A DNA stretch of 64,000 bases from the NCBI GenBank assembly GCA_964653595.1, contig CAZZHH010000016.1, forward strand, positions 1,349 through 65,348, given 5' to 3'. Below are positions 13,201-44,261 of this stretch, one piece after another; positions within the stretch are counted from its first letter, which is position 1; the number at the start of each line of letters is the position of its first letter. The notes under the pieces are model-generated. The model had not been told where the DNA came from. It ran no database searches and saw only the letters and a program-made list of their open reading frames with translations. A program made the position numbers and the translations under genes. This DNA is from an uncultured Lentimicrobiaceae bacterium (GTDB lineage: Bacteria > Bacteroidota > Bacteroidia > Bacteroidales > WCHB1-69).

Positions 13201-14076
13201 ATGGCTATACTTGATATTTCAGATTCTACTAGTGTGCCCAACAACGCAGCAAAAGAAAAGCTAAGCTATAAGGACTCTGTGCTTCATTTATATACCCCTA
13301 AACACTGGATTACCTGGTTCGACTCCACTTCTTATTATCAAACGGATTCCATTTCATATATACCTTCTGTTTTTAATAATCACTCCCTTAAAACTTCTTA
13401 CCACAAACCATTAATAAATGGGGTTGAAAACAGAAATTGGCTTTTTGGGTTACTTCTGATAATCACTATATTATATGTATACATTCATACAAACTTCCAC
13501 AACAGATATTCACAAGTAAAAAGAGCATTTATAGCTAAAAGGTATTATTCGCTTCTTATTCGTGATGGTAATATTTTTAAAGAAAGAATTGTCATCCCAA
13601 TAATGATTATTTTTTTAATAAGTTTTTCGTTGGTAATCTATTGTACCTTTGAATATTTGTTTACTGTTTCGCAAATTTTTTCATCCAAGACAACTCTTTT
13701 TGTCTATGTTTTGATAGGAGTTATATTGTATCAACTAGGAAAGTCTTTTTTTATTCAAGTGCTTGGAGAAATTTTTTATGCTCGAAATGAAACAGAAGCA
13801 TATATTCTTGACAACTTGCTATTTAAATCTTTTGTTAGTCTTTTTTTGCTCCCATTGCTATGGCTTTTCATCTACTCTCAATTTGGATTAGTATTAATTC
13901 TGATATGGGTAATTATTGGAGTCTTGACAACCATTCGACTCATAAAAGCGGTAAATAATTGGCTTGGAGTTTTCTCCTTTTTCAAATTAATTTTGTACCT
14001 TTGCACTCTGGAACTATTACCAATCGTTATTCTTGCGAAAGCAATGCAAATAATTATTGAACGATATACAATTTAA
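13201..14076 (+). CDS. Polytopic membrane protein, DUF4271-like
   Basis: Multiple TM helices. Its position directly upstream of hemD is a conserved Bacteroidota arrangement as I recall it. Start moved to the ATG after the -7 box. Confidence 0.6.
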   Translation: MAILDISDSTSVPNNAAKEKLSYKDSVLHLYTPKHWITWFDSTSYYQTDSISYIPSVFNNHSLKTSYHKPLINGVENRNWLFGLLLIITILYVYIHTNFHNRYSQVKRAFIAKRYYSLLIRDGNIFKERIVIPIMIIFLISFSLVIYCTFEYLFTVSQIFSSKTTLFVYVLIGVILYQLGKSFFIQVLGEIFYARNETEAYILDNLLFKSFVSLFLLPLLWLFIYSQFGLVLILIWVIIGVLTTIRLIKAVNNWLGVFSFFKLILYLCTLELLPIVILAKAMQIIIERYTI

Positions 14077-14098
14077 TAATGTTTAAAATCAGTTAGCG

Positions 14099-14860
14099 GT
14101 GAAAATACAAAACATTCTTATTTCACAACCAAAACCTGTTGATTTTGAAAAATCTCCATATGCAGAAATAGTAAAAAAACACAATGTTAAAATAGATTTC
14201 TTAAAGTTTTTTTCCATAGAAGAAATTCCTGCTACCGAATTTAGAAAATATCGAATTAATATTTTGGATTATTCTGCGGTAATCCTGATGAGCAAAAATG
14301 CAATTGACCATTTTTTTCGAATGGCAAAAGAATTACGGATTGAGATTCCTGACTCCATGAAGTATTTTTGTGTTAATGAAGCCACTGCTCTCTATTTACA
14401 ACGCTACATTACTTATCGAAAAAGAAAAATATTCTTCAGTAAATCTTCTATGCCAGAGCTTGTGGATATTATTTTAAAACACAAAAACGAAAAATACATA
14501 ATACCTACAGCAGACGCCAATGGTGGATTGATTGCAACCAATCTTATCGAAAACGGCATCTCTTTTACTCCTGCACTTATGTTTGCCAGTAAATCGGTAG
14601 ATTTAAAAAGCTTAATTAACATTGAGAACTATCAGATGGTAGTAATTTTTAGCCCTTCCGGAATGCAATCTCTATTTGAAAACTATCCAGATTTTAAAGA
14701 AAAAAACATAGAAATAGCGGCATTAGGGAAAAACACCTGCAATGTAATTGAAACCCATGGACTCACCCCCTCTTTTATGGCACCCACTCCCGATTGTCCA
14801 TCGATTACTATTGCCTTAAATCAATATTTAAAAAAAGCCAATAAAGGTCAAAAGAAATAA
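14099..14860 (+). CDS. hemD: Uroporphyrinogen-III synthase-like protein
   Basis: About 250 aa with the ILISQPKP... N-terminus typical of Bacteroidota HemD-family proteins. GTG start. Confidence 0.7.
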   Translation: MKIQNILISQPKPVDFEKSPYAEIVKKHNVKIDFLKFFSIEEIPATEFRKYRINILDYSAVILMSKNAIDHFFRMAKELRIEIPDSMKYFCVNEATALYLQRYITYRKRKIFFSKSSMPELVDIILKHKNEKYIIPTADANGGLIATNLIENGISFTPALMFASKSVDLKSLINIENYQMVVIFSPSGMQSLFENYPDFKEKNIEIAALGKNTCNVIETHGLTPSFMAPTPDCPSITIALNQYLKKANKGQKK

Positions 14861-14862
14861 TA

Positions 14863-15267
14863 ATGTACACTTTTAAAAAAGAGGAGCGTTTGTGTTCTCA
14901 CAACCAAATTCAAGAGTTGTTGAAACATGGAAGTTCCTTTTTTGAATTTCCATTTCGTTGTATTTGGTTCGTAGCCGACAAAACTGAACATCCTGTTCAA
15001 ATTGCATTTTCTGTTCCTAAAAGGAAAATAAAACATGCGAATAAACGAAATTACATAAAACGACAAATACGTAATGCCTATAGAATTGAGAAACACACTC
15101 TCACAGAAAGGGCATTTACAAATCAAAAATCAATTCTTTGCATTCTCGTTTACAACAGTTCGGAAATTTTTCCCTATAAAGTGATAGAACAAAAAATAAA
15201 AACGATTGTAAGCCGTTTAGAAGAGCAACTTTTTGTATCTTTGGAAAACAATAAACCTAAAACTTAA
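14863..15267 (+). CDS. rnpA: Ribonuclease P protein component
   Basis: [17 protein letters not shown]... and the basic RNR-like region [22 protein letters not shown]. Sits next to yidD. Confidence 0.85.
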
Positions 15268-15305
15268 TTTCAAGCATAAGCAACTTGGCTGTTAAATTAA
15301 AAAAA

Positions 15306-15548
15306 ATGAGTAGAATAATTGAGTGGTTTTTATATCCCATCAAGATAATCTTTTTGTTTATAATTAAGTTTTACCAATTGGTAATTTCTCCACTTACACC
15401 CCCCTCGTGTAGGTACACTCCTTCTTGTTCGGCATACAGTGCTCAGGCAATCAAAAAACATGGACCGATAAAAGGGGGATGGTTTGCCATAAAAAGAATA
15501 TTATCGTGCAACCCATGGGGTGGAAGTGGTTATGATCCCGTTCCATAA
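15306..15548 (+). CDS. yidD: Membrane protein insertion efficiency factor YidD
   Basis: Signature [31 protein letters not shown]...[11 protein letters not shown] at 15306 preferred over the TTG at 15285. Confidence 0.88.
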
Positions 15549-15579
15549 AATCAAATTCAAAACGACAAAAAAACATCAA

Positions 15580-17250
15580 ATGAAAATATTAAAATCATTA
15601 TCTTCTACTAAAAAAAGAGTACTTCTTTTCATTTCCATTGTAATTATTGGGTGGGGCGGAACTTCGTTTATTGATCAGGATTTCGAAATTGCCAAACAGA
15701 TCGATATTTTTGCATCCGTATTGCGCGAGTTAAATGCTAATTATGTAGATGATATTAACCCCGGAGACCTAGTAAAAACTGCTATCGATGAAATGTTAAA
15801 ATCTCTCGATCCATATACTGTTTACTATCCCGAAAGCGATTTAGAAGAATTTAAACTACTTACAACAGGTCAATACGGAGGAATAGGATCCATGATTCAA
15901 ATACAAGGGGATTATGTAGTGGTTAGCGACCCTTATGAGAACTCACCTGCACAAAAAGCGGGACTCAAAGCAGGCGATAAAATTATTGAAATTAACGGGA
16001 AAAGTGCTAAAGGAAAAACCACGAGTGAGGTGAGCGCAGCTCTAAAAGGGCAACCAGGCACAACTGTAAAAATTCTAATTCAATCGTATGGCGAAACTGC
16101 CACTGTAGAAAAAACAATCACTCGTGAAGAGATTAAACTTCCCAACATCCCATACGCAGAAAAAGTCGCCGACGACATTGCTTATATCAATTTATCCCAA
16201 TTTACCGAAAATGCATCTAAAGAAGTCAAAGAAGCGTTTTTAAGACAAAAAAAAGAGGGTGCTAAATCGCTAATTTTAGATTTAAGAGGAAATGGTGGTG
16301 GACTTTTACAAGAGGCCGTGTTAATAATGAACATCTTTGTTGACAAAAACAACACCATTGTGAGCACCAAAGGGAAGTTAAAAGAAAAAAACTTTGATCA
16401 TAAAACCATTTTCCCTGCTATTGACACTGAAATTCCAATAGTAGTCCTAGTTGATGAGTCTAGTGCTTCTGCATCAGAAATTGTGGCTGGTTCGTTTCAA
16501 GATTTAGACCGTGGCGTTATCATTGGAAAAAGAACATTTGGCAAAGGCTTAGTCCAAAACATAGTTCCTCTCTCCTACAACACACGAATGAAAGTAACCA
16601 TCTCGAAATATTTTATTCCTAGTGGCAGATGTATTCAAGCCATTGACTATGGAGATAAATCGGAGGGTAAAAACCACAAGAAAGTATCTGATTCTACCTA
16701 TGTAGCATATAAAACAAAAAACGGACGATTAGTATATGATAAAGGAGGAATTGAGCCAGATATAACCACTCCCAATCCCAAAAGTATCCCTGTAGTTGGA
16801 AGTTTGTATGTTAACAACTTGTTTTTCGATTTTGCTAATCATTTTGCTAAAAACAACAAAACAATTCCTACCCCTAAAAAATTTATAATCACAGAAGATA
16901 TTTATCAACAGTTTGTGTCGTTCGTAAAACAGAAAAAAGAGATTCAATATACTACCCAAACTGAAAAAACACTTGCTTCTTTAAAAACGTTAGCAGAAGA
17001 TGAACAATATTATAACGCTATAAGTGAAGAATTTACTAGATTGCAAAAAAAATTATCCTTGGAGAAAGAACAAGATTTGACAAAATATAAAAAAGAGATT
17101 TGCACCATTCTTAGATCCGAAATAGTAAGTCGTTACTATTATCAAAAAGGACAAATAGAAGTGATGCTTTCAGATGATCCAGAATTACAAAAAGCAGTTG
17201 AAATTCTTCATGAGTCCCGTAAATACAAGGAAATTCTAAAAATAAAATAA
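15580..17250 (+). CDS. S41 family C-terminal processing peptidase (PDZ domain)
   Basis: PDZ region (SPAQKAGLKAGDKIIEING). S41 catalytic region (LDLRGNGGGLL...SASASEIVAG...GKRTFGKGLVQ). ATG at 15580 (MKILKSL signal/TM) avoids overlap with yidD. Confidence 0.85.
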   Translation: MKILKSLSSTKKRVLLFISIVIIGWGGTSFIDQDFEIAKQIDIFASVLRELNANYVDDINPGDLVKTAIDEMLKSLDPYTVYYPESDLEEFKLLTTGQYGGIGSMIQIQGDYVVVSDPYENSPAQKAGLKAGDKIIEINGKSAKGKTTSEVSAALKGQPGTTVKILIQSYGETATVEKTITREEIKLPNIPYAEKVADDIAYINLSQFTENASKEVKEAFLRQKKEGAKSLILDLRGNGGGLLQEAVLIMNIFVDKNNTIVSTKGKLKEKNFDHKTIFPAIDTEIPIVVLVDESSASASEIVAGSFQDLDRGVIIGKRTFGKGLVQNIVPLSYNTRMKVTISKYFIPSGRCIQAIDYGDKSEGKNHKKVSDSTYVAYKTKNGRLVYDKGGIEPDITTPNPKSIPVVGSLYVNNLFFDFANHFAKNNKTIPTPKKFIITEDIYQQFVSFVKQKKEIQYTTQTEKTLASLKTLAEDEQYYNAISEEFTRLQKKLSLEKEQDLTKYKKEICTILRSEIVSRYYYQKGQIEVMLSDDPELQKAVEILHESRKYKEILKIK

Positions 17251-17341
17251 GAATGACCCTTTTTGTATTGAACTTCCATTTTGTACAATAATTACTTGAA
17301 ACTCTCGTTTGAAAAAACAGGGTTAAATTAAACTTTTTATT

Positions 17342-18943
17342 TTGAAAATAGACATACTCAGGCATCGAATTTTTCTCTTTGGGGTAATATTATTGGCTAT
17401 CTCTTTACCTACATCGAAATTTGGCATGAGCATCTCCCAAATGATACTTGCGGCCAATTGGCTAATTGACAAAGATTTAATACAAAAACTAAACGCATTT
17501 ATTCGCAATAAAGTAGCTTTAAGTTTTTCACTCCTGTTTTTTGTACATACTGTTTGGCTTGCGAATACAATCAATTTCGAATATGCAATGCTTGATTTGA
17601 GAATCAAATCTCCAATTTTAATATTGGCAATCATCTTTTCAACCACTCCTTCCCTTACAATTAAAGAGTTTAAAACCGTTTTAGTATTACATGTATTATC
17701 GGTATTGTTAATGAGTATGATTGGGTTTTACATTTATTATTTCGAAAACCCTACCGATTTTAGAGACATTTCGCCGTTTATTTCACATATCCGGTTATCG
17801 TTAAATGTCTGTATTGCCATCTTTACCTTAGTTTATTTTATTTTTCACACACAAGATATCTTTTTTAAAACAAAATATATTTTATTTGCCAGCAAGTTTG
17901 TTATCCTATCTCTTATATTCTGGTTTTTAAACTTCCTCTCTCTCTTACAATCCGCAACGGGGATTTTTTTATTTATATTTGTCGGGTTAGTTTTAATCTT
18001 AAAATATATCATTCAAAAAGAGATCTCTAAAAAATCTAAAATCACCTTATTATCCTTAATTCTACTCATCCCATTGTTTCTCGTTGGATTTATTTACATC
18101 TCGTTTAAAACGTACATGTATCGCCCACCTGTAAACATAGAATCGCTTGAAAAGACAACTCCCTATGGCGAAACATACCGCCATGACACTATTTTTTTCA
18201 CCACTGAGAATCAACAATGGATTGGATTATATTTATGCGAATCGGAACTTGAAAAAGCATGGAACCAGAGAAGCAATATGAAGTATAACTCCAAAGATGA
18301 AAGAGGAAATATTATCAATTATACCCTAATACGTTACCTCACATCTATGAATCTTAGAAAAGATAGAGATGGGGTAAACGCATTATCCAAAGAGGATATT
18401 TCAAACATCGAAAAAGGAATAGCGAATAAAAACTACACCAGAGGTATTGGAATAAAGCATAGGCTTCATAAGCTTTATTGGGAATATTTAATGAATAAAA
18501 CGAATGGAGACATAAAAGGACACAGCATGTTTCAACGCTTAGAACTTTGGAAAACTTCTGTTGAAATTTTGAAAAAAAACTGGCTATTTGGTGCTGGAAC
18601 TGGAGATGTGCCAGATGTTTTTAAGCAAGAATTAATGGAGAAAAACTCTCCTTTAAAAGAGACGAGAATGCGAAGCCACAATCAATATTTATCCCTTTTT
18701 ATTGCTTTTGGTATTTTCGGTTTTTTACTTTGCTTATTCTCTTTTATATATCCATTTTTTAAAACAAAACAGTTTTTTGACTATTTTTGTATGGTTTTTC
18801 TAATTGTATTTTTTGTGTCCATGATTACAGAAGATACAATTGAGTCTCAAGATGGAGTTACTTTTTATGCGTTTTTCTCATCACTTTATCTTTTTTTAAA
18901 ACCACTTAATAGAGAACAATTTAACAACAAAACGAATGATTAG
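17342..18943 (+). CDS. O-antigen ligase/polymerase (Wzy_C) family membrane protein
   Basis: At least 10 TM helices and a periplasmic loop with RLELWK...GAGTGD...RSHNQYLSL, typical of the O-antigen ligase domain. The start (TTG) is uncertain. Confidence 0.7.
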   Translation: MKIDILRHRIFLFGVILLAISLPTSKFGMSISQMILAANWLIDKDLIQKLNAFIRNKVALSFSLLFFVHTVWLANTINFEYAMLDLRIKSPILILAIIFSTTPSLTIKEFKTVLVLHVLSVLLMSMIGFYIYYFENPTDFRDISPFISHIRLSLNVCIAIFTLVYFIFHTQDIFFKTKYILFASKFVILSLIFWFLNFLSLLQSATGIFLFIFVGLVLILKYIIQKEISKKSKITLLSLILLIPLFLVGFIYISFKTYMYRPPVNIESLEKTTPYGETYRHDTIFFTTENQQWIGLYLCESELEKAWNQRSNMKYNSKDERGNIINYTLIRYLTSMNLRKDRDGVNALSKEDISNIEKGIANKNYTRGIGIKHRLHKLYWEYLMNKTNGDIKGHSMFQRLELWKTSVEILKKNWLFGAGTGDVPDVFKQELMEKNSPLKETRMRSHNQYLSLFIAFGIFGFLLCLFSFIYPFFKTKQFFDYFCMVFLIVFFVSMITEDTIESQDGVTFYAFFSSLYLFLKPLNREQFNNKTND

Positions 18944-24257: not shown

Positions 24258-24562
24258 GTATCCTTAAATCCAAAATCAGCGATACAATCGCTGAAACGAT
24301 TAAATGTATATATATCCAATAGTTATGCACAAGCGTAGAAAGACAGAACCACAGTGAAAAATTTGCTGCATAAAGAAAAAGAGGAAATGGAAACCCCGTC
24401 CACATTCAGGCACATTTGGCTGCCCTTACGCACAGGCGACCGCTTCGCAGCCAAAAGAGCCTTCATTTTGCCATTCCACATCTGACTGTTGATAATTCAG
24501 ACACTTTTTATAATGAAATTTGATATAAAAAATCTATTTTAGCTGACTGACTATTTTACGAC

Positions 24563-24763
24563 ATGAACAGAATAAAAGAAATTCTTGAAAAAAAAGGAAT
24601 TAAGCAGACTTGGTTGGCTGAAAGACTTGGTAAAAGTTATAATGTTGTAAATGGATATGTGCAAAACAGACAACAACCAAGATTAGAAGTGCTTTTCGAA
24701 ATTGCAAAAATCCTTGATGTTGACCCGAAGGAATTAATTAAAACAGAAGACTGTAAAAAATGA
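24563..24763 (+). CDS. XRE-family helix-turn-helix protein (controller-like, 66 aa)
   Basis: HTH_3 pattern GIKQTWLAERLGKSYNVVNGYVQNRQQPRLEVLFEIAKILDV. Its stop overlaps the ATG of the next gene by 4 nt (ATGA). Confidence 0.85.
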   Translation: MNRIKEILEKKGIKQTWLAERLGKSYNVVNGYVQNRQQPRLEVLFEIAKILDVDPKELIKTEDCKK

Positions 24764-27700
24764 TTTTAGATAACGAAAACGAAAATAAAAAAGTCCACGA
24801 GTGGTTTTCTCAATATACAGAAGCGGGAAAACTGGATATTGTAACAGGATATTTTACAATTGGTGCATTAGCTTATTTATCCAAACAGGTTAATGATAAA
24901 ATAAGTGATTTCCGTTTAGTATTAGGCGATATTGTAAATGTTGACATTGAGGATAACCGACCTTTGGACTTATTGAATGAAAACATAAGCATTGAAGCAT
25001 CTTTAAAATTAAGTAGTGTTGCACTGGAAGTCGTTAATTTTCTAAAACAAAATAAAGTAATTGCAAAAACACTTGAACCTAATTTTTGCCATGCTAAAAA
25101 TTATCTATTTAATCCATCTGAAAACGATGATAGAAAGAAATACTTTATTTCGGGAAGTTCTAATTTGACAGAAGCTGGAATTGGATTAAAGACAACAAAT
25201 AATGTTGAATTAAACATTGCTGAAACAGGAAATAACAACCAATACAAAGAACTTGTAAGTTGGTTTGAAAACCTTTGGGTAAGACCGCAAGCCCACAAGG
25301 ATAAGACAATTATTCATAATGATGGAACTAAAACAAAGGTTGATTTCAAGGAATATCTAATTCACGAAATAGAGAAAATATTTATCAAGTACACGCCAAG
25401 AGAAATATATTTCAAAATTCTATTCGAACTGTTCGGCTCGCAGCTTATAGAGCAAGAAAACGACCCTGATTTTAGCAGACAAGTTGGACGTCTGGAAAAC
25501 AGTGTAATTTATAATGCACTTTATGATTTTCAAAAGAAGGGTGTTTTAAGTTTAATCCGAATGCTTCAAAAATACAATGGAGCAATATTGGCTGACGCTG
25601 TTGGTTTGGGAAAAACATGGAGCGCATTGGCTGTAATGAAGTTCTTTCAATTGCAAGGGCGTGAAGTTCTGTTACTTTGTCCAAAGAAACTTGAAAACAA
25701 CTGGAAAAGGCATAGAAAGAATCAGGAATCAAAATTCGAAAAAGACCAGTTTGATTTTTTTGTTCGTTTCCATACAGATATGAGCGAAGAAAGACTTGAA
25801 AAATATGACGACCGTGCTGATAAGTTCTTCACCAACGACAAGCCCAAACTTATAGTAATTGATGAGAGCCATAATTTAAGAAATGATAAATCGAATCGTT
25901 ATACGTTTTTATTAGAACAAGTTCTAAAACCAAACGAAGATATTAAAGTACTTTTACTTTCAGCAACACCAATAAACAACTCGTTAAATGATATTCGCAA
26001 CCAGTTTAAATTAATGGTGCAGGGCGATGTTCAGGGATACAATGAGAAATTAGGTGTTAGAAATATTGAATATACTTTCCGCACTGCTCAAAAAGCATTT
26101 AATGAATGGAGAGAGGACGATAAGCCAAAAATAAGTGAGTTCATAAAAAAACTACCTGCCAATTTCTTTACGCTTACCGATTCATTAACCGTTGCCCGTA
26201 CACGAAAAATGATTGACGGACATCAAAAAGAATTGATTTTTCCACATAAAGCGAAACCAATAAATCTTTTTGTTACTCCTCATGAACTTGGAAATTTCGA
26301 AACATTTGAAGAATTATTTGACCATTTTCCGCCTATGCTGTCTGGCTATCAACCTTCGTTTTATGTTGATATTAACGAAAAGGAAAAGAATGTTTTGCAC
26401 GATGAAAGGCAGCGTGACCGCTTCCTCGTTAAAATGATGTACATTTTAATGGTTAAACGCTTAGAGTCGTCTTGGTTTTCATTTTATTCAACAGTTGAGA
26501 AAATCAAAAATCATCATCAAAACGCTTTGGATAAAATCAAAAATTACCTTGAGAACAAGAAAAATCAAACTATGGATGATATAGATGCCAATCAATTTGA
26601 CGATGATGATTTAGAAGAACAATACGAAGAATTTACCCTTGGCAAAAAACGTAAAATCAGCCTCTCTGAAATTGATGAAGCAGGTAATATTGAAAATTTT
26701 AAAAAGGATTTAAAGAAAGATTTGGATGCTTTAGATAACCTCTTTATTAATCTTCAAAAATTTGAGTCACGGATTAACAAAGAAATTGACAAACCAAACA
26801 ATTTAAATTCAATTGATAATAAGCTTGAAGAACTTATAAAACAAATTCAATCCAAACGTTTAAAAGGTGCAAACGCAAACAATCAGAAGGTTGTAATTTT
26901 TACGGTTTATAGGGATACGGCTAAATACCTGTTTGACCAATTAAAGGCAAGGGGATTTAATAATTTGGCAATGGTTTCAGGCTCTGGTTCATTAACTTCC
27001 GATTCGGATGAAGAAACAAAAAACTTTGAACCAATACTTGAACGTTTTGCTCCTTACACGAAACTTTACAAGGAAAAAGAGTGGGATTTTGATTCCGAAA
27101 AACATAAATCAAATGCTTATCAGGAATGGATAAAATGGATTGCAGACAACCACCCAAAAACCTATCAAAAGTTACAAAACCCGATTGATATTTTAATTGC
27201 AACCGATGCTTTAAGTGAAGGACAAAACTTGCAGGATGCTGATATGGTAATTAATTACGATATACACTGGAACCCTGTAAGGATTATTCAACGAATGGGG
27301 CGTATTGACCGTTTGGGCTCACCAAACCAAAAGATTTACGGTATTAATTTCTGGCCATCGAACAACATAAACAACTACTTAGATTTGCAAGGTCGTATTG
27401 AGCAGCGAATGGCTGCTATGAAATTGGCAGGTGCAGAAGTAAACCTTGAATTTTCCGATACCTTCAAAGAAATGGCAGAAGACGAAAATCTTGAAAATCG
27501 TCTAAAATCCCGAATGATGGAACAAATGCAAACATCTTGGGATGATATTGAAGTGAGCGACCAAGGACTTGGATTTGACAATTTGTCGCTCGAAAAGTAC
27601 CGACAAGATTTATTTGAAGAATTTAATAAAGACAAGTCAAAATACCAGCGAATGCCTAAAGGTGTGTATTCGGGGTTCAAATCGGATAAAAATATATGTT

Positions 27701-28143
27701 CAAAAGACGGCATCATTGCGCTTTTAGGTTATCCGTCGAAACCTGAAAAACAGCGTGACCACATGTACAGAGTATTTGATATTATTTACATTGATTATAG
27801 AGGAGAAATGGTTTTGCTCAACCAAAAAGAGGTTTTGGATGCAATTACTTATCACAAAGACAGGGAGCGTTTTGTGCCTGATGCCATTGATAAAGGAAAT
27901 GAATCTGCAATACAGGAATTAGTAAACGCACTGAAAAACTATTTAGATAGTCAGGCAACCGAAACAGAAGTACAAGCCGATGGCACAATAAAAAAATCAA
28001 TGGGCAGAGAGGCAAAAGACGTTTTAGACAAACTCCGAAAAGGCGACAAAGGTGCTTTGGCAAGAGTGAAGCAAAACGTAAAAGTTGATGAAAAATATCA
28101 ACTCGACAATTTTGATTTAATAGCATGGTTTATAATATCATAG
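24760..28143 (+). CDS. PLD-family (single HKD) nuclease domain fused to an SNF2-family ATPase/translocase
   Basis: HKD motif HAK at 25090-25098 plus GSSNLT. SNF2 motif I GLGKT at 25603-25617, motif II DESH at 25861-25872 and motif III SATP. C-lobe carries ATDALSEGQNLQ and QRMGRIDRLGS. About 280 aa of C-terminal sequence has no motif I recognise. Confidence 0.9.
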   Translation: MILDNENENKKVHEWFSQYTEAGKLDIVTGYFTIGALAYLSKQVNDKISDFRLVLGDIVNVDIEDNRPLDLLNENISIEASLKLSSVALEVVNFLKQNKVIAKTLEPNFCHAKNYLFNPSENDDRKKYFISGSSNLTEAGIGLKTTNNVELNIAETGNNNQYKELVSWFENLWVRPQAHKDKTIIHNDGTKTKVDFKEYLIHEIEKIFIKYTPREIYFKILFELFGSQLIEQENDPDFSRQVGRLENSVIYNALYDFQKKGVLSLIRMLQKYNGAILADAVGLGKTWSALAVMKFFQLQGREVLLLCPKKLENNWKRHRKNQESKFEKDQFDFFVRFHTDMSEERLEKYDDRADKFFTNDKPKLIVIDESHNLRNDKSNRYTFLLEQVLKPNEDIKVLLLSATPINNSLNDIRNQFKLMVQGDVQGYNEKLGVRNIEYTFRTAQKAFNEWREDDKPKISEFIKKLPANFFTLTDSLTVARTRKMIDGHQKELIFPHKAKPINLFVTPHELGNFETFEELFDHFPPMLSGYQPSFYVDINEKEKNVLHDERQRDRFLVKMMYILMVKRLESSWFSFYSTVEKIKNHHQNALDKIKNYLENKKNQTMDDIDANQFDDDDLEEQYEEFTLGKKRKISLSEIDEAGNIENFKKDLKKDLDALDNLFINLQKFESRINKEIDKPNNLNSIDNKLEELIKQIQSKRLKGANANNQKVVIFTVYRDTAKYLFDQLKARGFNNLAMVSGSGSLTSDSDEETKNFEPILERFAPYTKLYKEKEWDFDSEKHKSNAYQEWIKWIADNHPKTYQKLQNPIDILIATDALSEGQNLQDADMVINYDIHWNPVRIIQRMGRIDRLGSPNQKIYGINFWPSNNINNYLDLQGRIEQRMAAMKLAGAEVNLEFSDTFKEMAEDENLENRLKSRMMEQMQTSWDDIEVSDQGLGFDNLSLEKYRQDLFEEFNKDKSKYQRMPKGVYSGFKSDKNICSKDGIIALLGYPSKPEKQRDHMYRVFDIIYIDYRGEMVLLNQKEVLDAITYHKDRERFVPDAIDKGNESAIQELVNALKNYLDSQATETEVQADGTIKKSMGREAKDVLDKLRKGDKGALARVKQNVKVDEKYQLDNFDLIAWFIIS

Positions 28144-28148
28144 TTTTT

Positions 28149-28174
28149 CAAACCCGTCGAATTCGACGGGTTTG
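28149..28174. repeat. 26-nt perfect palindrome CAAACCCGTCGAATTCGACGGGTTTG between the helicase and KilA-N genes
   Basis: Read directly. GC-rich 12-bp stem centred on GAATTC, starting 6 nt after the helicase stop. There is no clean T-run, so it is an attenuator or processing hairpin rather than a strong terminator. Confidence 0.8.
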
Positions 28175-28194
28175 GAAAATAAAACAATTGAGCA

Positions 28195-29007
28195 ATGGCA
28201 AAAAATAAAAAAATTAATGTCGAAGGAATTGAAATCACTGTTATTCAGCAAAATAATAATGATTTTATTAGTCTTACCGATATGACTTCTAATTTTAAAG
28301 AAGGTGCCGGATTAATAGGTAAGTGGGTTACCAATAAAAATACTTTAGAATATCTTGGTATTTGGGAGAAAATAAACAATCAAGGTTTTAATTACCCCGA
28401 ATTCGGGGTAATTGAAAAGGAAGCCGGCACAAATCGGTTTATTATGTCGGTTGGACAGTGGATTCAAAGAACCGACGCTGTAGGTGTAATAGTAAAAGCT
28501 GGCAGGTACGGTGGAACTTATGCACACAAAGACATAGCCTTTCATTTTGCAATGTGGTTGAGTCCTGAATTTCAAATTTATTTGATAAATGAATTTCAAC
28601 GCCTCAAGGAAATTGAAAATAAAGAGTTAGGTTGGAATGTAAGCCGGATTTTATCAAAAATCAACTACCGCATTCACACCGATGCCATTAAGGAAAACTT
28701 AATCCCCGAAAAACTTTCGCCAGCTAAAATTCAACAAGTATATGCCTCTGAGGCTGATGTGCTGAATGTTGCACTATTCAACTGTACAGCCATGGAATGG
28801 CGAAGCGAAAATCCCGAAAAAGAAGGCAATATGCGTGATTATGCAACACTTGAACAGTTGGTTGTTTTGGCAAATTTAGAAAGCATGAATGCTTTGTTTA
28901 TCCGGCAGCAAATTCCACAATCACAACGGCTTGTTTTACTTAATGAGCAGGCAATCCAACAAATGAAAAGTATTTTATCCGTTCCGGGATTTAAAAAATT
29001 GCAATAA
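28195..29007 (+). CDS. KilA-N domain DNA-binding protein
   Basis: KilA-N pattern: ISLTDM...GKWVTNKNTLEYLGIWE...GRYGGTYAHKDIAFHFAMWLSPEFQIYL. The C-terminal half is helical and of unknown function. Confidence 0.72.
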   Translation: MAKNKKINVEGIEITVIQQNNNDFISLTDMTSNFKEGAGLIGKWVTNKNTLEYLGIWEKINNQGFNYPEFGVIEKEAGTNRFIMSVGQWIQRTDAVGVIVKAGRYGGTYAHKDIAFHFAMWLSPEFQIYLINEFQRLKEIENKELGWNVSRILSKINYRIHTDAIKENLIPEKLSPAKIQQVYASEADVLNVALFNCTAMEWRSENPEKEGNMRDYATLEQLVVLANLESMNALFIRQQIPQSQRLVLLNEQAIQQMKSILSVPGFKKLQ

Positions 29008-29013
29008 TTATGA

Positions 29014-29071
29014 AACACCCATGTTTTACAATCGCAAACACAATAATAATAAAATCAACAACATGGGTGTT
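29014..29071. repeat. 12-bp inverted repeat AACACCCATGTT / AACATGGGTGTT separated by 34 nt, between the KilA-N and methyltransferase genes
   Basis: Arms at 29014-29025 and 29060-29071, read directly. The loop is A-rich. Confidence 0.75.
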
Positions 29072-29100
29072 CCATCATACTTCTAAAAAATAATTTTATT

Positions 29101-32100
29101 ATGATGAAACTAACTTACTTCAAAGATATTTCCTTCCTTCAAGCAATCAAAGCTTTATTTAACGAACTTAACGTTCCTGTTAATTATGTTGCCGATGAAC
29201 CAACTTCAGCACAAGAAATTTTAAAAGATACCTACAAAGAAAACAGCACGTTTCAACTCGTAAACGAAGTGTATTTTGTGGGGATGGTTGACGATGCTGC
29301 TTTTGAAGGCAACAAAAGTCTTGCTGTCGAAAAAATCAAATCCGATTACGATGGTATTTTGATTTTTGGCGTATCTCTCAATCAGCGTGAAAACAACCTT
29401 TTGCCTACACGTTCGCAATTGGCTGAAATTTCAAGGGCATTTAATCGTGAGTTTTATTACACACCTGTTGTATTGGTTTTTAAATATGCCGATGACAAAG
29501 GACAATATATTGCATTTGCCAACACCGAACGACTGCAATACAAACAGGCGTGGCGTGAAGGTGAAAAAGCAGGAAAAGTGTCTTTGCTACGTGATATTGA
29601 CATACAACGCCCACACCGTGGGCACGAAGATATAATTAACCAACTTCGTATTCAAACATCTGGTACAAAAGCCGTTGATACTTTCGCCAAACTTTATGCT
29701 TATTGGCAAGAGGTTTTTAGTGTTAGTGTTCTTAACAAGCGATTCTATCTGGAACTTTCAAACTGGTATTTTTGGGCAGTTAAGCAGGTTACTTTCCCTG
29801 ATAAACCAACCGAAGCCGATGCAATTAAGAAAAATGCCAAGTTGGAGGATTTAATTCAGGAACATAATGCTACCAATGTCATTCGTTTGCTTACTCGTTT
29901 GTTATTTACTTGGTTTATTAAAGAAAAAAAACTGATTCCCGAGGAACTGTTTGACCTCGAAGCATTGCAAAAAGATATTTTGAACGATATTGCACCGTAT
30001 CATGAAAATGGCTTGTTTAATCAGGCAAATAAAGACAGTGTTTATTACAGGGCAATCCTGCAAAACTTGTTTTTTGCTTCGCTTAACTGTCCAATAAAAC
30101 CCGATGGCACTGATTCCCGCGAACGTGGTTTCCGTGGCGATGGGTATGGTACACACCGTGGCATTGATTATTTGATGCGGTACAAACGATACTTTAAAAA
30201 TCCCGATACGTTTCTGGAACTGATGAACAAAACCGTTCCATTTTTGAATGGCGGTTTGTTTGAATGTTTGGACGATAAATACAGCAATACATACATTGAT
30301 GGCTTTTCTGACCAAATGACAAAAGGCGAACAATTAATTGTTCCCGACTATTTGTTTTTTGGCACACCCGAAGAGGTGGATTTAAGCACAGAATACGGCG
30401 TCAATAATAATACTACCAAGAAAGCAGCAGTTAAGGGATTGATAAATATTCTGAAATCGTACAAATTTACTATTACGGAAAATACCCCGATTGAAGAAGA
30501 CGTTGCCCTTGACCCCGAATTGTTGGGTAAAGTATTTGAAAACCTTTTGGCAAGTTACAATCCCGAAACCAAAACAACAGCACGTAAACAAACAGGCTCG
30601 TTCTATACTCCTCGTGAGATTGTTAACTACATGGTTGATGAAAGCCTGATTGCTTACCTGAAAAATGCAGTTACCGATTGGCAAATGGACGAAAAACAGG
30701 TGGACGAACAGTTGCACCAACTGGCTTCGTTTGATGCAAAAAACCCATTCGTTGAAAATCAAAAACTTACCCGTGATATAGTTTCAGCCCTCGACCGTTG
30801 TAAAATACTCGACCCTGCTTGCGGTTCGGGTGCTTTCCCTATGGGAGTACTTCAAAAAATGGTGCACATGCTGCAAAAGCTCGACCCTAATAACCTTATT
30901 TGGAAAGAGGTGCAAATACAAAAAGTGCAGGAAGAAACCAGCGAAGTGTTTAAAACTATTGACGACAAAGCCGAACGGGAAGAAAAACTGAAAGAAATAA
31001 ACAATGCTTTCGACCAACGGGTAAACGACCCCGATTATGCCCGTAAACTTTACCTGATTGAGAATTGTATTTATGGTGTGGATATACAGCCTATTGCCAC
31101 ACAAATTTCAAAACTACGTTTCTTTATTTCATTGGTGGTTGACCAAAAAAGCAATGCTAAAGCTGATGAAAATTTTGGCATACGCCCATTACCTAACCTT
31201 GAAACTCGTTTTGTTTCAGCAAATTCATTAGTTGAGATTAATAAAGAAACCAATTTATTTACTACTGACAAGGTAAAAACATTAGAAACAAAACTTAAAA
31301 AAATTAGACATCGTTTATTTAGTGCTAGAACTAAAGAAACAAAACTTAAATATCGCAACCTTGATTCTGAGTTAAGAATAGAAATTGCAGAAGAATTAAA
31401 AAATCAAGGTTTACCTGTTGATTCTGCCGAAAAATTAGCAAAATGGGACCCTTATGACCAAAATTTAACGTCTTCTTTCTTTGATAATGAATGGATGTTT
31501 GATATTCCAGATGGGTTCAATATTATCATAGGAAATCCACCATACATTAAAGAATATACTGATAGAAAAGCATTTGAGCCAATAAAAGGTAAAAAATATT
31601 ATCAAGGCAAAATGGATATATGGTATTATTTTGCTTGTGTTGGAATTGATTTATTAAGTGAAAATGGAATTTTGTGTTTTATAGCAACAAACAATTGGAC
31701 TACCAATGCCGGTGCATCAATATTAAGAAATAAAATTCTTGACGAGACAAAGCTTGAAAAGTTTATTGATTTTGGTAGTTACATGATTTTTGAAAGTGCC
31801 GCTATTCAAACAATGATATTTGTAATAAGAAAAGGCATAGCAGATAATTACTTATTAGATTATAGAAAAATAGAAAAATCCGCAGCAAATTTAACTGATG
31901 TTAATAAGATTCTAAACAAAGAAAAAGGCAATTATCTATATGAGACTATTGATTTTAAGAAAGATAAATGGTTAAACAAAAACTTTAATTTTGAAAATAC
32001 AGATATTGAGTCTATTCTTGATAAAATAAAAAACGTTTCAAATTTCAAATTTGATTCAAAGGAAGTAGGTACTGGTATTGATGTACATCAAGACTTTTTA

Positions 32101-33018
32101 AATAAAAAAGGTAAAGAGGTTTTAGGCTCATCTTACGAAGTTGGTGAAGGTATATTTAATATTACTAATGATGAATTGGAAGAATTATCCTTAGAAAAAA
32201 ATGAACTAGAATTAATAAAACCCTTTTACACAACAAATGAACTTGGAAGATACTTTGGTAATTCTAAAAATAGCATTTGGGTAATTTATACTGGTTCCGA
32301 TTTTAAAGATGTACGGAGAATAAAACCTTACCCGAATATAAAGAAACATCTTGATAGGTTTAAATCTGTAATAACCTCTGATAATAAACCATATGGCTTG
32401 CATCGGGCTCGAAATGAAAACTTTTTTATAGGAGAGAAAATTATATCTTTAAGAAAGTGTGCCACTCCAACCTTTACATATACTGATTTTGATTGTTATG
32501 TTTCTCAAACCTTCTTTGTAATTAAATCTCATAGAATTAACCTTAAATATCTAACAGGCCTTTTAAATTCAAAATTAGTTGCGTTTTGGTTGTGGCATAG
32601 AGGTAAACTTCAAGGAGACTTTTATCAGGTAGATAAAGAACCACTTTTAGAAATACCTTTGATAAAAGATGAAAGCAAAACCAAATTAATTGCCAGTTTG
32701 GTTGATTTTATTATTTATTTTACAAAAAAACAGATTGATACCTCAATTATGGAACAGGTATTAGATGCCCTTGTCTTTAATCTTTATTTCCCCGACCACA
32801 TGAAAGAACGTGAAATAGATGTGTTGCCATTTGTAGAGCGTGATATTGAAAAAGTGATGCAAAACAAAGAGTTTGAAAAATTAAGTGATACTGAGAAAGA
32901 ACAGGTAATTGAGCAATTGCATCAAACCTGGAGCCACCCCGATAGTGAAGTTCGCAACCGTATTAAGTTGTTTGCAGTGCGTAGCCCCGAGATTCTTAAA
33001 CCTATTTTAGAGAGTTAA
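29101..33018 (+). CDS. Large Eco57I/Type IIG-like N6-adenine DNA methyltransferase with C-terminal TaqI-like target-recognition domain (1305 aa)
   Basis: Motif [10 protein letters not shown] at 30811-30837 and motif IV NPPY at 31534-31545, with a long I-IV spacing as in the Eco57I/PglX-type family. Helical segment [21 protein letters not shown]. The C-terminal pattern ([25 protein letters not shown]...LLEIPL) is typical of Type IIG specificity domains. Confidence 0.9.
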
Positions 33019-33021
33019 GCC

Positions 33022-33483
33022 ATGAAAGATGCGATAGAAAAGATTAAGAACTCAAAAGACTATTTGAAAGAGTAAGCCCACCCTTCGCATCCATATACAA
33101 CTTGTACCGAACTTGTTTCGGTATTGGCAAGTCGCACAAAGCTACCCTGCAAACCAATTTTTGCGTTGAGTGAGAGCAGAACCAAACTTGTTTGAGTTAT
33201 GCCGAATGGAGCAAAAATCAGCAGAGCTAAAACTGGCCAAAGAGTATAGCTGCCCCAAACGCACGGCAGACAAGAAAGTGCAGCAAAAATGAAAGACAGA
33301 ATGACGAAAGACAAGAACGGCCAACTTGTAACAGGCGGTATCATTTATTGTCGAGATAGTGCTGAAATCATCGGCTGTGGCTCGCTTCAAACTACATCGT
33401 GGCTTGACAGTGACGTGCTTCGAAATCGGCTACAAAAACATACCGCCAATCCGTTCTGTTTTTTGAAATCTCCGATTAATTAA
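33022..33483 (+). pseudogene. Possible decayed gene: 17-codon ORF plus same-frame continuation with three in-frame stops (alternative reading: structured non-coding RNA/DNA)
   Basis: ATG at 33022, 4 nt after the methyltransferase stop. One frame runs 154 codons with internal stops only at 33073, 33193 and 33247. The region is about 45% GC in a roughly 33% GC genome. Two HTH-like stretches occur (TTCTELVSVLASRTKL, DSAEIIGCGSLQTTSWL). Evidence is weak. Confidence 0.3.
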
Positions 33484-42695: not shown

Positions 42696-44261
42696 ATGAT
42701 TGTCTCACTAAAGAAGCAAAAAAGTGCTATTTGTGCTATCTCTTCGGGCTTTTTATTCGCTTTATCTTGGCCCTCATCGGGATTTCCATTTCTGATTTTT
42801 TTTGCATTTATTCCCCTTTTATCCTATATAGAAAGTAACCCTAGTCCAAAGTTATTCGACATTTTTAGAGTGAGTTTTTTTGCCTTTCTTTTATGGAATG
42901 CATCTGCAGCATGGTGGATGATAAAATATCATTTTGTTGGCGGAAGCATGGTAATTCTGATTAACTCTTTTTTGATGGCTATTGTAATAGCAACTTTTGG
43001 TTTTTTAAAACAAAAAAAAATCGCTGGAAATAAAAAATACATTGCCTTTGTGGCTCTTTGGCTTACCATGGAATGGATGCACATGCATTGGGATTTATCT
43101 TGGCCTTGGCTTACCCTGGGTAACGCCTTTGCTACCCATCCTAAATTGATTCAATGGTATTCGTATACTGGCGTTTTTGGGGGTTCGCTTTGGATACTTG
43201 TTTCAAACATACTTCTCTTTAATTTTTTTGAAAAAGCAAAAACAAAAAAAATTTCTTTTTCCCTAATAATACTTCTAATATTAACCCTATCTATCATTTT
43301 TATCCCTATTTTGCTCTCTTTCAAGTTGCTAAATAAAGAGAATTCAAATAAATTAGAAGAGCTAAACTGTTTGCTTATTCAGCAAAACACAAATCCTTAC
43401 AATGAAAAAGAGAGCTTTACTGTCATCAATAATCGGTTAATTTCGATGGTAAAAGATAATATTGATACTACGACCCAATTGGTTATTCTGCCAGAAACTG
43501 CAATTGCAAATGAAATTAACGTAGAGAAAATAGAAAAAAATCAAGAAATTTCAGAGTTCATCGCGCTTCAAAATCAATATCCAAAAGCTTCGTTTCTTGT
43601 CGGTGCTACCACATATTCTAACGATAGTAGGGATAAAAAAACATACAACTCTGCAATCTATATAGGAAAAAATGGAAAAATTGAAACCTATCATAAATCA
43701 AAATTAGTCCCTGGCGTAGAAGAATATCCATTTAAATGGATTACCATTCCTATAATAAAGTGGATTACGGGAAATGTATATGATAAAAAATACTCCTCTG
43801 GAGACAAACAAAGCTGTTTCTCGACAAATGATTCAACATCAAAAATAGCAGTTGCTATTTGCTACGAATCCTTATATGGATCCTATATTTCCAAATTTTT
43901 CAACAAGGGTGCTAATGCAATCGTATTAATAACCAACGACGGATGGTGGGACAACACAGACGGCTATCGTCAACATTTAGCTATATCTCAAATTAGAGCA
44001 ATTGAAAACAGTAGCACTATGGTAAGAGTAGCAAATACTGGAATTTCGGCTATTATCAATGCCAATGGTTTGATTGATTCACAAACAGAATGGGATAAAC
44101 AAACCACTTTGAAAAAAACCATAAAAATGAAAACAAAATTGACTTTTTATGAGATTTATGGTGATTTTATTCTTACTATTGCAAATCTAATCACATTGTT
44201 TTATGGATTGTTGGTTTTTTCAGCTTCCATTCAAAAACTGGGTAAATTAAGACAATTATGA
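42696..44261 (+). CDS. lnt: Apolipoprotein N-acyltransferase
   Basis: N-terminal polytopic domain and C-terminal CN-hydrolase domain with E...K...C (LPETA, HKSKLVPG, VAICYES). ATG at 42696 preferred over the TTG at 42669. Confidence 0.82.
   Translation: MIVSLKKQKSAICAISSGFLFALSWPSSGFPFLIFFAFIPLLSYIESNPSPKLFDIFRVSFFAFLLWNASAAWWMIKYHFVGGSMVILINSFLMAIVIATFGFLKQKKIAGNKKYIAFVALWLTMEWMHMHWDLSWPWLTLGNAFATHPKLIQWYSYTGVFGGSLWILVSNILLFNFFEKAKTKKISFSLIILLILTLSIIFIPILLSFKLLNKENSNKLEELNCLLIQQNTNPYNEKESFTVINNRLISMVKDNIDTTTQLVILPETAIANEINVEKIEKNQEISEFIALQNQYPKASFLVGATTYSNDSRDKKTYNSAIYIGKNGKIETYHKSKLVPGVEEYPFKWITIPIIKWITGNVYDKKYSSGDKQSCFSTNDSTSKIAVAICYESLYGSYISKFFNKGANAIVLITNDGWWDNTDGYRQHLAISQIRAIENSSTMVRVANTGISAIINANGLIDSQTEWDKQTTLKKTIKMKTKLTFYEIYGDFILTIANLITLFYGLLVFSASIQKLGKLRQL

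Follow-up and report, generated by a model that had tools for sequence, protein, structure and literature searches.

The window analysed here is a stretch of 64,000 nucleotides (nt) from contig CAZZHH010000016.1 of an uncultured Lentimicrobiaceae bacterium, and between its positions 24563 and 33018 it carries a cassette of four genes whose core, as the comparison of related loci supports, would be a tightly linked functional pair. The first gene of this pair, g2 (24760-28143, + strand), encodes a protein of 1127 amino acids (aa) in which an HKD nuclease domain of the phospholipase D (PLD) family is fused to an SNF2-type ATPase, and the second, g4 (29101-33018, + strand), encodes a gamma-class N6-adenine methyltransferase (MTase) of 1305 aa. 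We consider it fairly probable that the two proteins make up a two-subunit, ATP-dependent restriction-modification (R-M) system, in which g2 would act as the restriction subunit (R) and g4 as the modification and specificity subunit (M+S). The remaining genes are g1 (24563-24763, + strand; 66 aa), for a helix-turn-helix (HTH) protein of the XRE/Cro type, and g3 (28195-29007, + strand; 270 aa), for a KilA-N protein. The four co-oriented open reading frames (ORFs) lie exactly where the initial annotation of this DNA had placed them, and every motif coordinate that it gave within g2 and g4 proved exact. Reading frames of 1127 and 1305 aa in DNA of 33% GC, together with thousands of full-length homologues, are not a product of chance.

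The linked HKD-SNF2 and methyltransferase genes

To follow the two large genes across genomes, we used 24 genome loci fetched with g2 and 80 metagenome loci fetched independently with a diverse alignment of the N-terminal 480 aa of g4. In 86 of the 88 loci with enough flanking sequence, g2 is the gene immediately 5' of g4, in the same orientation, with g2 identity to the window falling as low as 25%, and this linkage holds whichever gene served as the query; the initial annotation had set the linkage of the two genes in other genomes as a test of its proposal. Of the two exceptions, one (L109) is a contig whose end falls inside a two-gene cargo insert. In the first neighbourhoods inspected, an Eco57I/TaqI_C methylase of 1215-1250 aa begins 0-10 nt past the helicase stop codon, and across the loci the distance between the genes is below 250 nt in about 59, often 0-25 nt, and 0.64-1.9 kb in about 27. 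The distances recorded for L013 and L102 are artefacts of the choice of high-scoring segment pair, the gap in L013 being about 1.15 kb and occupied by a DUF1016 gene.

The N-terminal domain of g2 (24760-25480) contains a single HxK...GSSN...NxE motif, with HAK at 25090-25098 and GSSN at 25153-25164. Residues H111, K113, G132-S133-S134-N135, T137, N148, E150 and N152 are invariant among 16 homologues of 23-69% identity. The Pfam matches to this domain are sub-threshold (PLDc_2 at 24.1 bits, for a cut-off of 27, and RE_NgoFVII), and a search of PDB sequences with the domain as a single sequence gave no match. A profile built from diverse homologues recovered BfiI (2C1L, E=0.021) as the sole meaningful PDB match, in an alignment that superposes the HxK...GSxN...NxE catalytic motif. 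Intact catalytic residues over such deep divergence argue for a selected phosphodiesterase activity, and with one HKD half-site per chain the active site would require a dimer. Dimerisation into one PLD active site is established for Nuc and BfiI.

Fused to the nuclease is a complete SNF2-type motor (25519-27459), with the Walker A sequence GLGKT at 25603-25617, DESH at 25861-25872, SATP, and QRMGRIDRLG, whose first five residues are encoded at 27289-27303; these motifs are invariant in the homologue alignment. Pfam recognises SNF2-rel_dom (E=3e-12), Helicase_C (E=7e-16) and ResIII (E=2e-8) in it, and its PDB matches are SMARCA5, ISWI, RapA and the Sulfolobus Rad54-like enzyme. The single HKD motif and the complete ATPase of the initial annotation were both borne out, and so were its expected SNF2, Helicase_C, KilA-N, Eco57I and TaqI_C matches (Pfam), PLDc_2 being the one found only below threshold. 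The best library model for g2 as a whole is the PADLOC model C3a139 'HKD+Snf2' (E=3.6e-70), a cluster known from the vicinity of type III CRISPR loci (PMC6546367); we considered and rejected the assignment of this model to Gao_RL, as it represents that CRISPR-associated cluster. Models for DrmD, BrxH/BrxHII, DpdE and 'phospholipD_antiphage' match only the helicase lobes of g2, far under their cut-offs. The C-terminal domain of g2 (aa 901-1127, 227 aa; 27460-28143) has no Pfam or PADLOC match.

Five parts can be distinguished in g4: an alpha/beta domain at the N-terminus (aa 1-190, 29101-29670), a helical region (aa 195-460, 29683-30480), the gamma-class MTase core (30481-31800), a target-recognition domain (TRD) of the TaqI_C type (31801-32820) and, 3' of the TRD, a conserved C-terminal tail (32851-33018). 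The core carries motif X as TGSFYTP, motif I as DPACGSGAF (30811-30837) and motif IV as NPPY (31534-31545), in the gamma-class order and with motifs I and IV near-invariant among 30 homologues. Pfam detects Eco57I (E=6.5e-34), N6_Mtase (E=4e-12) and TaqI_C (E=8e-9), and the profile of g4 matches CamA, BseCI and PglX/BrxX (8C45, 9EWZ) over the MTase, as well as M.TaqI. Per-position identity among 119 homologues is 0.63-0.99 at aa 1-800, falls to 0.16-0.32 at aa 901-1200 and climbs back to 0.75-0.93 over the last 55 aa (1251-1305), and some relatives share 87% identity confined to the first 70% of the protein. Such mosaic variability is the pattern expected of a specificity module and is consistent with the initial annotation's view that g4 carries its own specificity domain.

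The N-terminal part of g4 sits in the position of the Type IIG nuclease and is specific to this family. The top PADLOC matches of g4 are REase_MTase_IIG profiles (E=1e-64), and these cover the MTase and TRD only. For aa 1-190 no Pfam, PADLOC or IIG-nuclease profile match was found, MmeI_N matched none of 14 diverse family members, and a profile of the domain returned nothing from PDB sequences even at E<=10. In an AlphaFold2 (AF2) model of aa 1-570, local confidence is good for aa 1-190 (pLDDT 80-90) and in some stretches of the helical region, and nowhere else; the N-terminal model retrieved no fold from PDB or BFVD at E<0.001. The residues D64, D65 and D84 are unconserved in the homologue alignment, which leaves no PD-(D/E)xK signature in g4, as the initial annotation had also found; the conserved residues of the domain (R112, E143, R144, D165, H172, G174 and H175) form no such pattern. 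The helical region shows a weak relation to the MmeI-type helical spacer, with an MmeI_hel match in 2 of the 14 diverse members (E=0.005) and marginal matches to ~221-292 of the PADLOC REase_MTase_IIG profiles. From these null searches and the order of MTase and TRD, we deduce that g4 has the Type IIG/PglX layout with another domain at the nuclease position. Searches with the N-terminal 460 aa identified 1,495 cluster representatives (50% identity) at E<=1e-3, in which the module is always N-terminal, in proteins of about 1150-1380 aa, and the family spans Bacteroidota, Thermodesulfobacteriota, Gammaproteobacteria, Calditrichota and Cyanobacteria. As g4 opens with ATGATG (29101-29106) and its relatives open with MKL..., translation probably starts at the second ATG (29104).

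Further evidence on the partnership comes from the way the domains diverge. Across 73 loci, each domain was scored for its identity to the window and the scores were related by Spearman correlation. The N-terminal domain of g4 follows the g2 motor with a rho of 0.93 (n=46); rho is likewise 0.93 for each of the g2 nuclease and C-terminal domains compared with the motor, whereas the helical and MTase parts of g4 give only 0.39 and 0.34 when compared with g2. In six loci (L011, L040, L046, L047, L019 and L022) the N-terminal domain is at g2-like identity while the rest of g4 is far more diverged, and the g4 N-terminal and g2 C-terminal domains drop below detection in the same loci. These observations fit recombination in which g2 and the N-terminal domain of g4 form one module, exchanged against the helical-MTase part and against the TRD, a pattern that suggests a physical interface between the two.

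The homologues of g2 extend beyond this pairing. Thousands are full-length, and the best 120 are 78-97% identical and come from different phyla. More distant relatives, of about 30% identity, occur on plasmids (125 in all) and in a few phage records, within a different conserved operon ordered as HTH gene, HKD-SNF2 'helicase-related protein', DUF4391 gene, methyltransferase of about 540-660 aa and DEAD/DEAH helicase of about 1000 aa. Its hosts include Listeria, Enterococcus, Bacillus, Escherichia, Acinetobacter and Lactococcus, with L119 (plasmid pMsp65 of Acinetobacter sp. NEB149) and L120 (an E. faecium plasmid) as examples. Judged by this second kind of operon, the HKD-SNF2 protein looks like a reusable restriction module that is paired with several kinds of methylase.

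Several loci differ from the window around the methylase gene itself. In L001-L006 (Bacteroidales, 13392-18600 of each locus), an inverted TaqI_C ORF of about 300 aa lies 3' of the g4-type methylase, and the downstream region also holds a resolvase gene and an inverted repeat of 32 nt (94%); six assemblies of this one chromosomal site show allele lengths of 1215-1220 aa paired with 299-307 aa. By its organisation this is a TRD shufflon, of a kind already catalogued (PMC9881135). The window holds no second copy of the TRD. On plasmid p3 of Planktothrix agardhii (L118, 7001-12600), a g2 homologue (70% identity) has as its downstream neighbour a g4 homologue that breaks off near aa 710, ahead of motif IV, and is annotated as 'hypothetical protein'; an intact Type I system adjoins it, and the copy looks like a decaying one. 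In Algoriphagus formosus (L007, 17136-18866), the gene for a 576-aa SMC_N/AAA_15/AAA_23 ATPase overlaps the stop codon of the g4-type methylase and may represent an additional partner or another downstream passenger.

The cargo slot, the candidate regulator gene and the cassette edges

The space between g2 and g4 is a cargo slot, and g3, which the initial annotation had counted as a member of the cassette, is on comparative grounds a passenger in it and not a core component. The g3 protein matches KilA-N in Pfam (E=7e-22), the PADLOC candidate PDC-S22 (E=9e-125) and phrog_2657, a phage 'transcriptional regulator' PHROG (E=2e-55). A KilA-N gene occupies the slot in the window and in nine other loci, a DUF1016/YhcG PDDEXK nuclease fills it in about nine, and further contents are Schlafen-AlbA_2/HATPase_c_4 proteins, Fic, AbiEi with AbiEii, an ATPase_2 protein, an HSDR_N-like protein and an HTH pair. 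About two-thirds of the loci have an empty slot, including L008, which is 96% identical to the window and starts g4 with an ATG 4 nt past the g2 stop. Orthologues of the KilA-N protein with 69-75% identity adjoin hsdM inside Type I R-M operons (L034-L037), and one with 93% identity is found in a nuclease-rich island without R-M genes. The variability of the slot and the presence of KilA-N genes in Type I operons point to g3 as a promiscuous passenger of ATP-dependent R-M operons. In the four Type I operons a small PDDEXK_3 gene also separates hsdS from hsdR, and in two of them (L035 and L036) hsdM is split by an insertion sequence element, with an rve-type transposase between HsdM_N and N6_Mtase.

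The borders of the insert in the window are formed by two strong hairpins on the + strand. The left one (28143-28180), at the g2 stop, has a perfect stem of 17 bp (dG -25.4 kcal/mol, z = -6.6) and is conserved in L032; the right one (29009-29079), after the g3 stop, has a 12-bp stem with a long loop (dG -17.6 kcal/mol, z = -4.1). Cargo-free relatives have neither, and their g4 starts a few nt past the g2 stop. The hairpins may be transcription barriers or footprints of an insertion mechanism; a role as terminators was rejected, as no T-runs follow them and they are not called as terminators. A BLAST match of the g2-g3 hairpin within the KilA-N genes of L020 and L022 was also discarded as a shared element, being a coding palindrome (AACCCCGAATTCGGGGTT = NPEFGV).

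The HTH gene g1 (HTH_3, E=3.5e-12 in Pfam) shows a weak match to the PADLOC 'Control_protein' model (E=0.004). Its stop codon overlaps the start of g2 by 4 nt (ATGA), as first described for the window, and the same overlap occurs in L007, L032 and L001. A g1-like ORF lies 5' of g2 in at least about 13 of about 81 loci, a lower bound given that the ORF-based jackhmmer census missed L001 and L029, both of which were found by tblastn. On this distribution g1, one of the four genes of the initial annotation, is a facultative part of the cassette. It is a candidate controller of the C-protein kind whose translation is coupled to that of the nuclease gene. A small HTH gene upstream of, and coupled to, a nuclease gene is the classical arrangement of C-protein control.

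Conserved non-coding sequence delimits the cassette on both sides. The leader 5' of g1 (24322-24562, + strand), which presumably holds the promoter and operator, has counterparts of 89% identity 5' of the HTH genes of L032, L027 and L008, and the similarity ends at about 24322, which marks the left edge of the transferred unit. Its motif block TTTTTATA..TGAA..GATATAA..TATTTTAGC is present in more distant loci too. The leader also bears a CTGACTG element that is repeated and an inverted repeat, TCTGA-N11-TCAGA, a candidate operator by its sequence. The tail 3' of g4 (33019-33298, + strand), which forms the right edge, matches L009 and positions 19133-19304 of L032; a search of leader and tail against Rfam gave no match, and no conserved ORF was found in the tail. 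In L032 a RhuM gene stands between the methylase and the tail, and so marks a second cargo position, downstream of the methylase. The L032 cassette encodes proteins about 97% identical to those of the window, shares about 240 nt upstream and about 280 nt downstream with it, and sits between SecA/LGT and a different kinase. A cassette of this identity in an unrelated neighbourhood implies that the unit moves horizontally.

In the window the cassette is surrounded by ordinary housekeeping genes, which encode a GT2 glycosyltransferase, a DUF4476 protein, a mannosyltransferase (PMT_2) and a hybrid histidine kinase. The cassette had been described as visibly GC-richer than its flanks; its GC content is 34.4%, compared with 33.6% on each 10-kb flank and a standard deviation of 1.6 points for windows of the same size, and the GC argument for a foreign origin falls with it. 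Scans of the window showed no integrase or transposase beside the cassette and no tRNA genes. An explanation by a mobile element was rejected, there being none of these genes, no GC shift and no duplicated target where the cargo joins. A second, unrelated PLD-family gene at 44258-45361, with two HKD motifs (PLDc_2, E=5e-39), lies directly 3' of a gene for an apolipoprotein N-acyltransferase; its product is probably a phospholipid enzyme with a housekeeping role, outside the defence cassette.

Relation to characterised systems

The cassette is an uncharacterised new form of the known HKD-SNF2 R-M-like systems, a kind that has precedent. Fusions of HKD and SWI2/SNF2 domains in bacterial R-M contexts have been noted by comparative genomics since 2006-2008 (summarised in PMC3417536), and this pair of HKD-SNF2 and methylase genes was remarked on in passing in 2023 (PMC9881135). 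The Pin17FIII locus of Prevotella intermedia, reported in 2017, is by its description probably the same gene pair, with an upstream SNF2 helicase that is mentioned unexplained and an inverted ORF of about 300 aa; Pin17FIII alone in E. coli produces N6-methyladenine (m6A) at the asymmetric sequence GGYGAB (PMC5608340). The statement of the initial annotation that the architecture fits no scheme can be kept in one part, since the cassette is not DISARM, BREX or canonical Type I, II or III; its novelty was overstated, in view of these precedents and of MANTIS/Gao_RL.

The closest characterised relative is MANTIS/Gao_RL, a Type-2 DUF499-centred BREX-related system. Both have an N-terminal single-HKD nuclease fused to a superfamily 2 (SF2)/SNF2-type ATPase (bioRxiv 10.64898/2026.09.23.753747; PMC12839542), N6-adenine self-marking at short asymmetric sites, predicted in our case, and an optional small repressor gene, and the MANTIS effector, MtsD, is an HKD + SF2 dimer with one PLD site that acts downstream of a hemimethylating MTase (bioRxiv 10.64898/2026.09.23.753747). 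The differences lie in the other components. MANTIS has four core genes (MtsA-D) and the cassette two; the DUF499 AAA+ ATPase MtsA and the small MtsB are both missing from the neighbours in the window, and neither DUF499 nor DUF3780 was found among the called genes around L001-L007 and L032. In addition, MtsC is an alpha-class enzyme (FAGGG...DPPY, with a central TRD), whereas g4 is of the gamma class (DPACGSGAF...NPPY, Eco57I/TaqI_C) and has a long N-terminal extension.

The methylase is organised like the Type IIG/IIL enzymes (MmeI, Eco57I, BpuSI, Cj0031 and REBASE 'RM' fusions such as Pin17FIII), with which it shares the order of N-terminal domain, helical spacer, gamma MTase, TaqI_C-type TRD and tail, the hypervariable TRD that is sometimes part of a shufflon, and the expected asymmetric m6A motifs. 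The N-terminal PD-(D/E)xK nuclease of the Type IIG enzymes is undetectable in g4, and classical IIG enzymes are solo and ATP-free, while g4 stands beside an upstream HKD-SNF2 gene, an arrangement that would set it apart. BREX (PglX/BrxX with BrxHII) and ARMADA (ArmA/ArmB) likewise place a nuclease-less PglX-like gamma methylase beside an SNF2-type helicase (PMC12839542, PMC12458937); here there is no PglZ, BrxC, BrxA, BrxB or YprA helicase, the g2 helicase bears an active-looking HKD, and g4 scores 75.7 against the NCBIfam PglX model, whose cut-off is 500. Class 1 DISARM (DrmA-DrmD, DrmMI) also combines the activities of an SNF2 helicase, a PLD nuclease and an N6-adenine methylase, and its DrmD and DrmMI profiles give partial PADLOC matches to the cassette proteins; in the cassette PLD and SNF2 are fused, g2 scores 140 for a cut-off of 610 against NCBIfam DrmD, and the DrmA/DrmB (DUF1998) core has no ORF in the window, in agreement with the original view that this is not a full DISARM. 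Type III R-M systems pair a beta-class Mod with a Res that has a C-terminal PD-(D/E)xK, unlike the gamma MTase with its own TRD, the N-terminal HKD and the SNF2 motor seen here. On the features tested, membership of Type IIG, DISARM, BREX, MANTIS or Type III in each case fails at one or more defining points.

Among the PLD-family restriction nucleases, BfiI, NgoAVII/CglI and SauUSI have, like g2, a single HxK...GSxN...NxE half-site that requires dimerisation, and in SauUSI and NgoAVII/CglI the PLD nuclease is also coupled to an ATPase. BfiI (with a B3-like domain) and SauUSI (with a TRD) hold the target reader in the nuclease chain, whereas here the reader is in the partner methylase, and the expected target is unmodified, not modified, DNA. 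The cargo slot has its own parallel in the passengers of Type I operons, of which PrrC, embedded in the EcoprrI operon, is an example. In both cases an intergenic position gathers interchangeable genes (KilA-N, DUF1016/YhcG, Fic, AbiE and Schlafen-type), the host operon here being the HKD-SNF2/methylase pair.

Proposed mechanism, alternatives and significance

In the mechanism that we propose, the single hypervariable TRD of g4 would read a short, probably asymmetric motif, and g4 would methylate N6-adenine there, probably on one strand only, like the MmeI-type enzymes and PglX. The restriction subunit would be g2, with its SNF2 motor and one HKD half-site, and two copies of it would pair as in BfiI, SauUSI and MtsD. 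The PD-(D/E)xK nuclease at the N-terminus of Type IIG enzymes would have been lost or replaced in g4, and the domain of about 190 aa in its place would dock g2. At an unmethylated site, the bound g4 would recruit or license a g2 dimer via this N-terminal domain, and g2 would spend ATP to reach its DNA target and cut it with a single composite PLD site. Efficient cutting would probably need two inverted sites, as in other hemimethylating systems (Type III, ISP and MANTIS). In this scheme g1 would serve as a facultative C-protein-like regulator and g3 as a passenger between the R and M genes. Of the restriction system first envisaged for this locus, the linked PLD-SNF2/MTase pair, the intact motifs and the variable TRD within the MTase are upheld, on comparative and not experimental evidence, and the KilA-N component is not.

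Several points weigh against this mechanism. The rho of 0.93 could reflect mere adjacency, as g2 and the first 570 nt of g4 lie side by side and swaps of the 3' part would leave the N-terminal domain tied to g2. That domain could also be a very degenerate REase-like fold, of which the faintest of hints are YqaJ/PD-(D/E)xK-type BFVD matches at E=0.03 and a probability of 0.13. The AF2 model of full-length g2 (18 homologues of 78-96% identity) reached a pLDDT of 43, too low for use. The cargo insert of the window, with its two hairpins, may alter the co-expression of g2 and g4. In MANTIS, methylation needs an AAA+ loader and a co-regulator, no equivalent of which is encoded here, so that g4 would either manage on its own, which Pin17FIII seems to do, or lack a factor. 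Both Pin17FIII and the loci of PMC9881135 are likened to the cassette by description, and the N-terminal domain may or may not be among the shared features.

An alternative that we judge improbable, though the best placed of those considered, is a non-degradative methylation system, a BREX-like exclusion or a phasevarion, in which SNF2 would remodel or block DNA and the HKD would not be a DNA endonuclease. MtsD has yet to be shown to cut DNA in vitro (bioRxiv 10.64898/2026.09.23.753747), a point that tells against our mechanism and favours this one. The PglX-like layout of g4 and its matches to PglX/BrxX structures, the BrxHII and DrmD profile matches of g2, the shufflon-type switching of TRDs and the phase variation of the Cj0031 type, which alters gene expression (PMC4889913), are all consistent with it. 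Against it stand the invariance of every HKD catalytic residue over deep divergence, the absence of PglZ, BrxC, BrxA and BrxB from the window, the PglX and DrmD scores far under their cut-offs, and the nature of the slot passengers, which are the same abortive-infection and toxin types as in Type I restriction operons.

Still less probable is that two independent systems lie side by side, with g4 a stand-alone Type IIG enzyme that has a cryptic N-terminal nuclease and g2 an autonomous, SauUSI-like, ATP-dependent nuclease (Type IV-like). The top matches of g4 are indeed IIG profiles, REBASE-style annotation files such proteins as Type IIG (PMC5608340), Cj0031, of similar size, restricts phage alone (PMC4889913), and SauUSI is a self-contained PLD + helicase enzyme (cited in bioRxiv 10.64898/2026.09.23.753747). 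However, aa 1-190 of g4 fall outside every IIG profile match and the PD-(D/E)xK residues are unconserved; no modified-base reader domain was detected in g2 by Pfam or PADLOC; and adjacency and co-orientation in 86 of 88 loci across phyla, often at 0-25 nt, would be unexpected of unrelated neighbours, as would the constant company of a methyltransferase even for the plasmid g2-type genes of about 30% identity. An obligatory four-gene machine, in which KilA-N and HTH are essential, for example as DNA-binding adaptors, has the compact co-orientation of all four genes, the recurrence of the identical set in L032 and L009 and the PDC-S22 defence-candidate match of KilA-N in its favour, and is nonetheless very unlikely, given the slot that is vacant in most loci, even at 96% identity, or filled instead with DUF1016, Fic, AbiEi/AbiEii, Schlafen-type ATPases or ATPase_2, the KilA-N orthologues in Type I operons and an R-M-free island, the hairpins that bracket g3 as its own and the HTH gene counted, as a lower bound, in a minority of loci only.

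Beyond the two-subunit R-M system itself, we put forward a broader proposal, to which we give slightly less than an even chance: that the HKD-SNF2 protein and its 'nuclease-less Type IIG-like' methylase form a distinct, unnamed and minimal two-gene class of ATP-dependent R-M, in which a new adaptor of about 190 aa has taken the place of the Type IIG nuclease and directly joins a dimeric PLD motor-nuclease to a hemimethylating methylase without an AAA+ loader, and in which the R-M junction is a dedicated hotspot for second-line defence genes (KilA-N, DUF1016, Fic, AbiE and Schlafen-type), like that of Type I operons. If true, this would provide an evolutionary and mechanistic bridge among Type IIG/IIL, BREX and MANTIS.

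The gene pair is widespread and has been glimpsed before, and it has never been studied. Current tools would call the locus 'Type IIG R-M + PDC-S22' and miss the nuclease-motor partner, and censuses of methylomes and defence systems that count such genes as bifunctional Type IIG probably mislabel them. With the cargo slot, a second operon type joins the ATP-dependent R-M operons that host interchangeable passenger genes. In BREX, MANTIS and their kin it is an open question how the coupling of a motor-nuclease to a methylase that marks only one strand avoids self-killing, and systems of the BREX/MANTIS type need four to six proteins and have resisted reconstitution in vitro. As two proteins seem to do the same job here, this family could be a much simpler experimental model.

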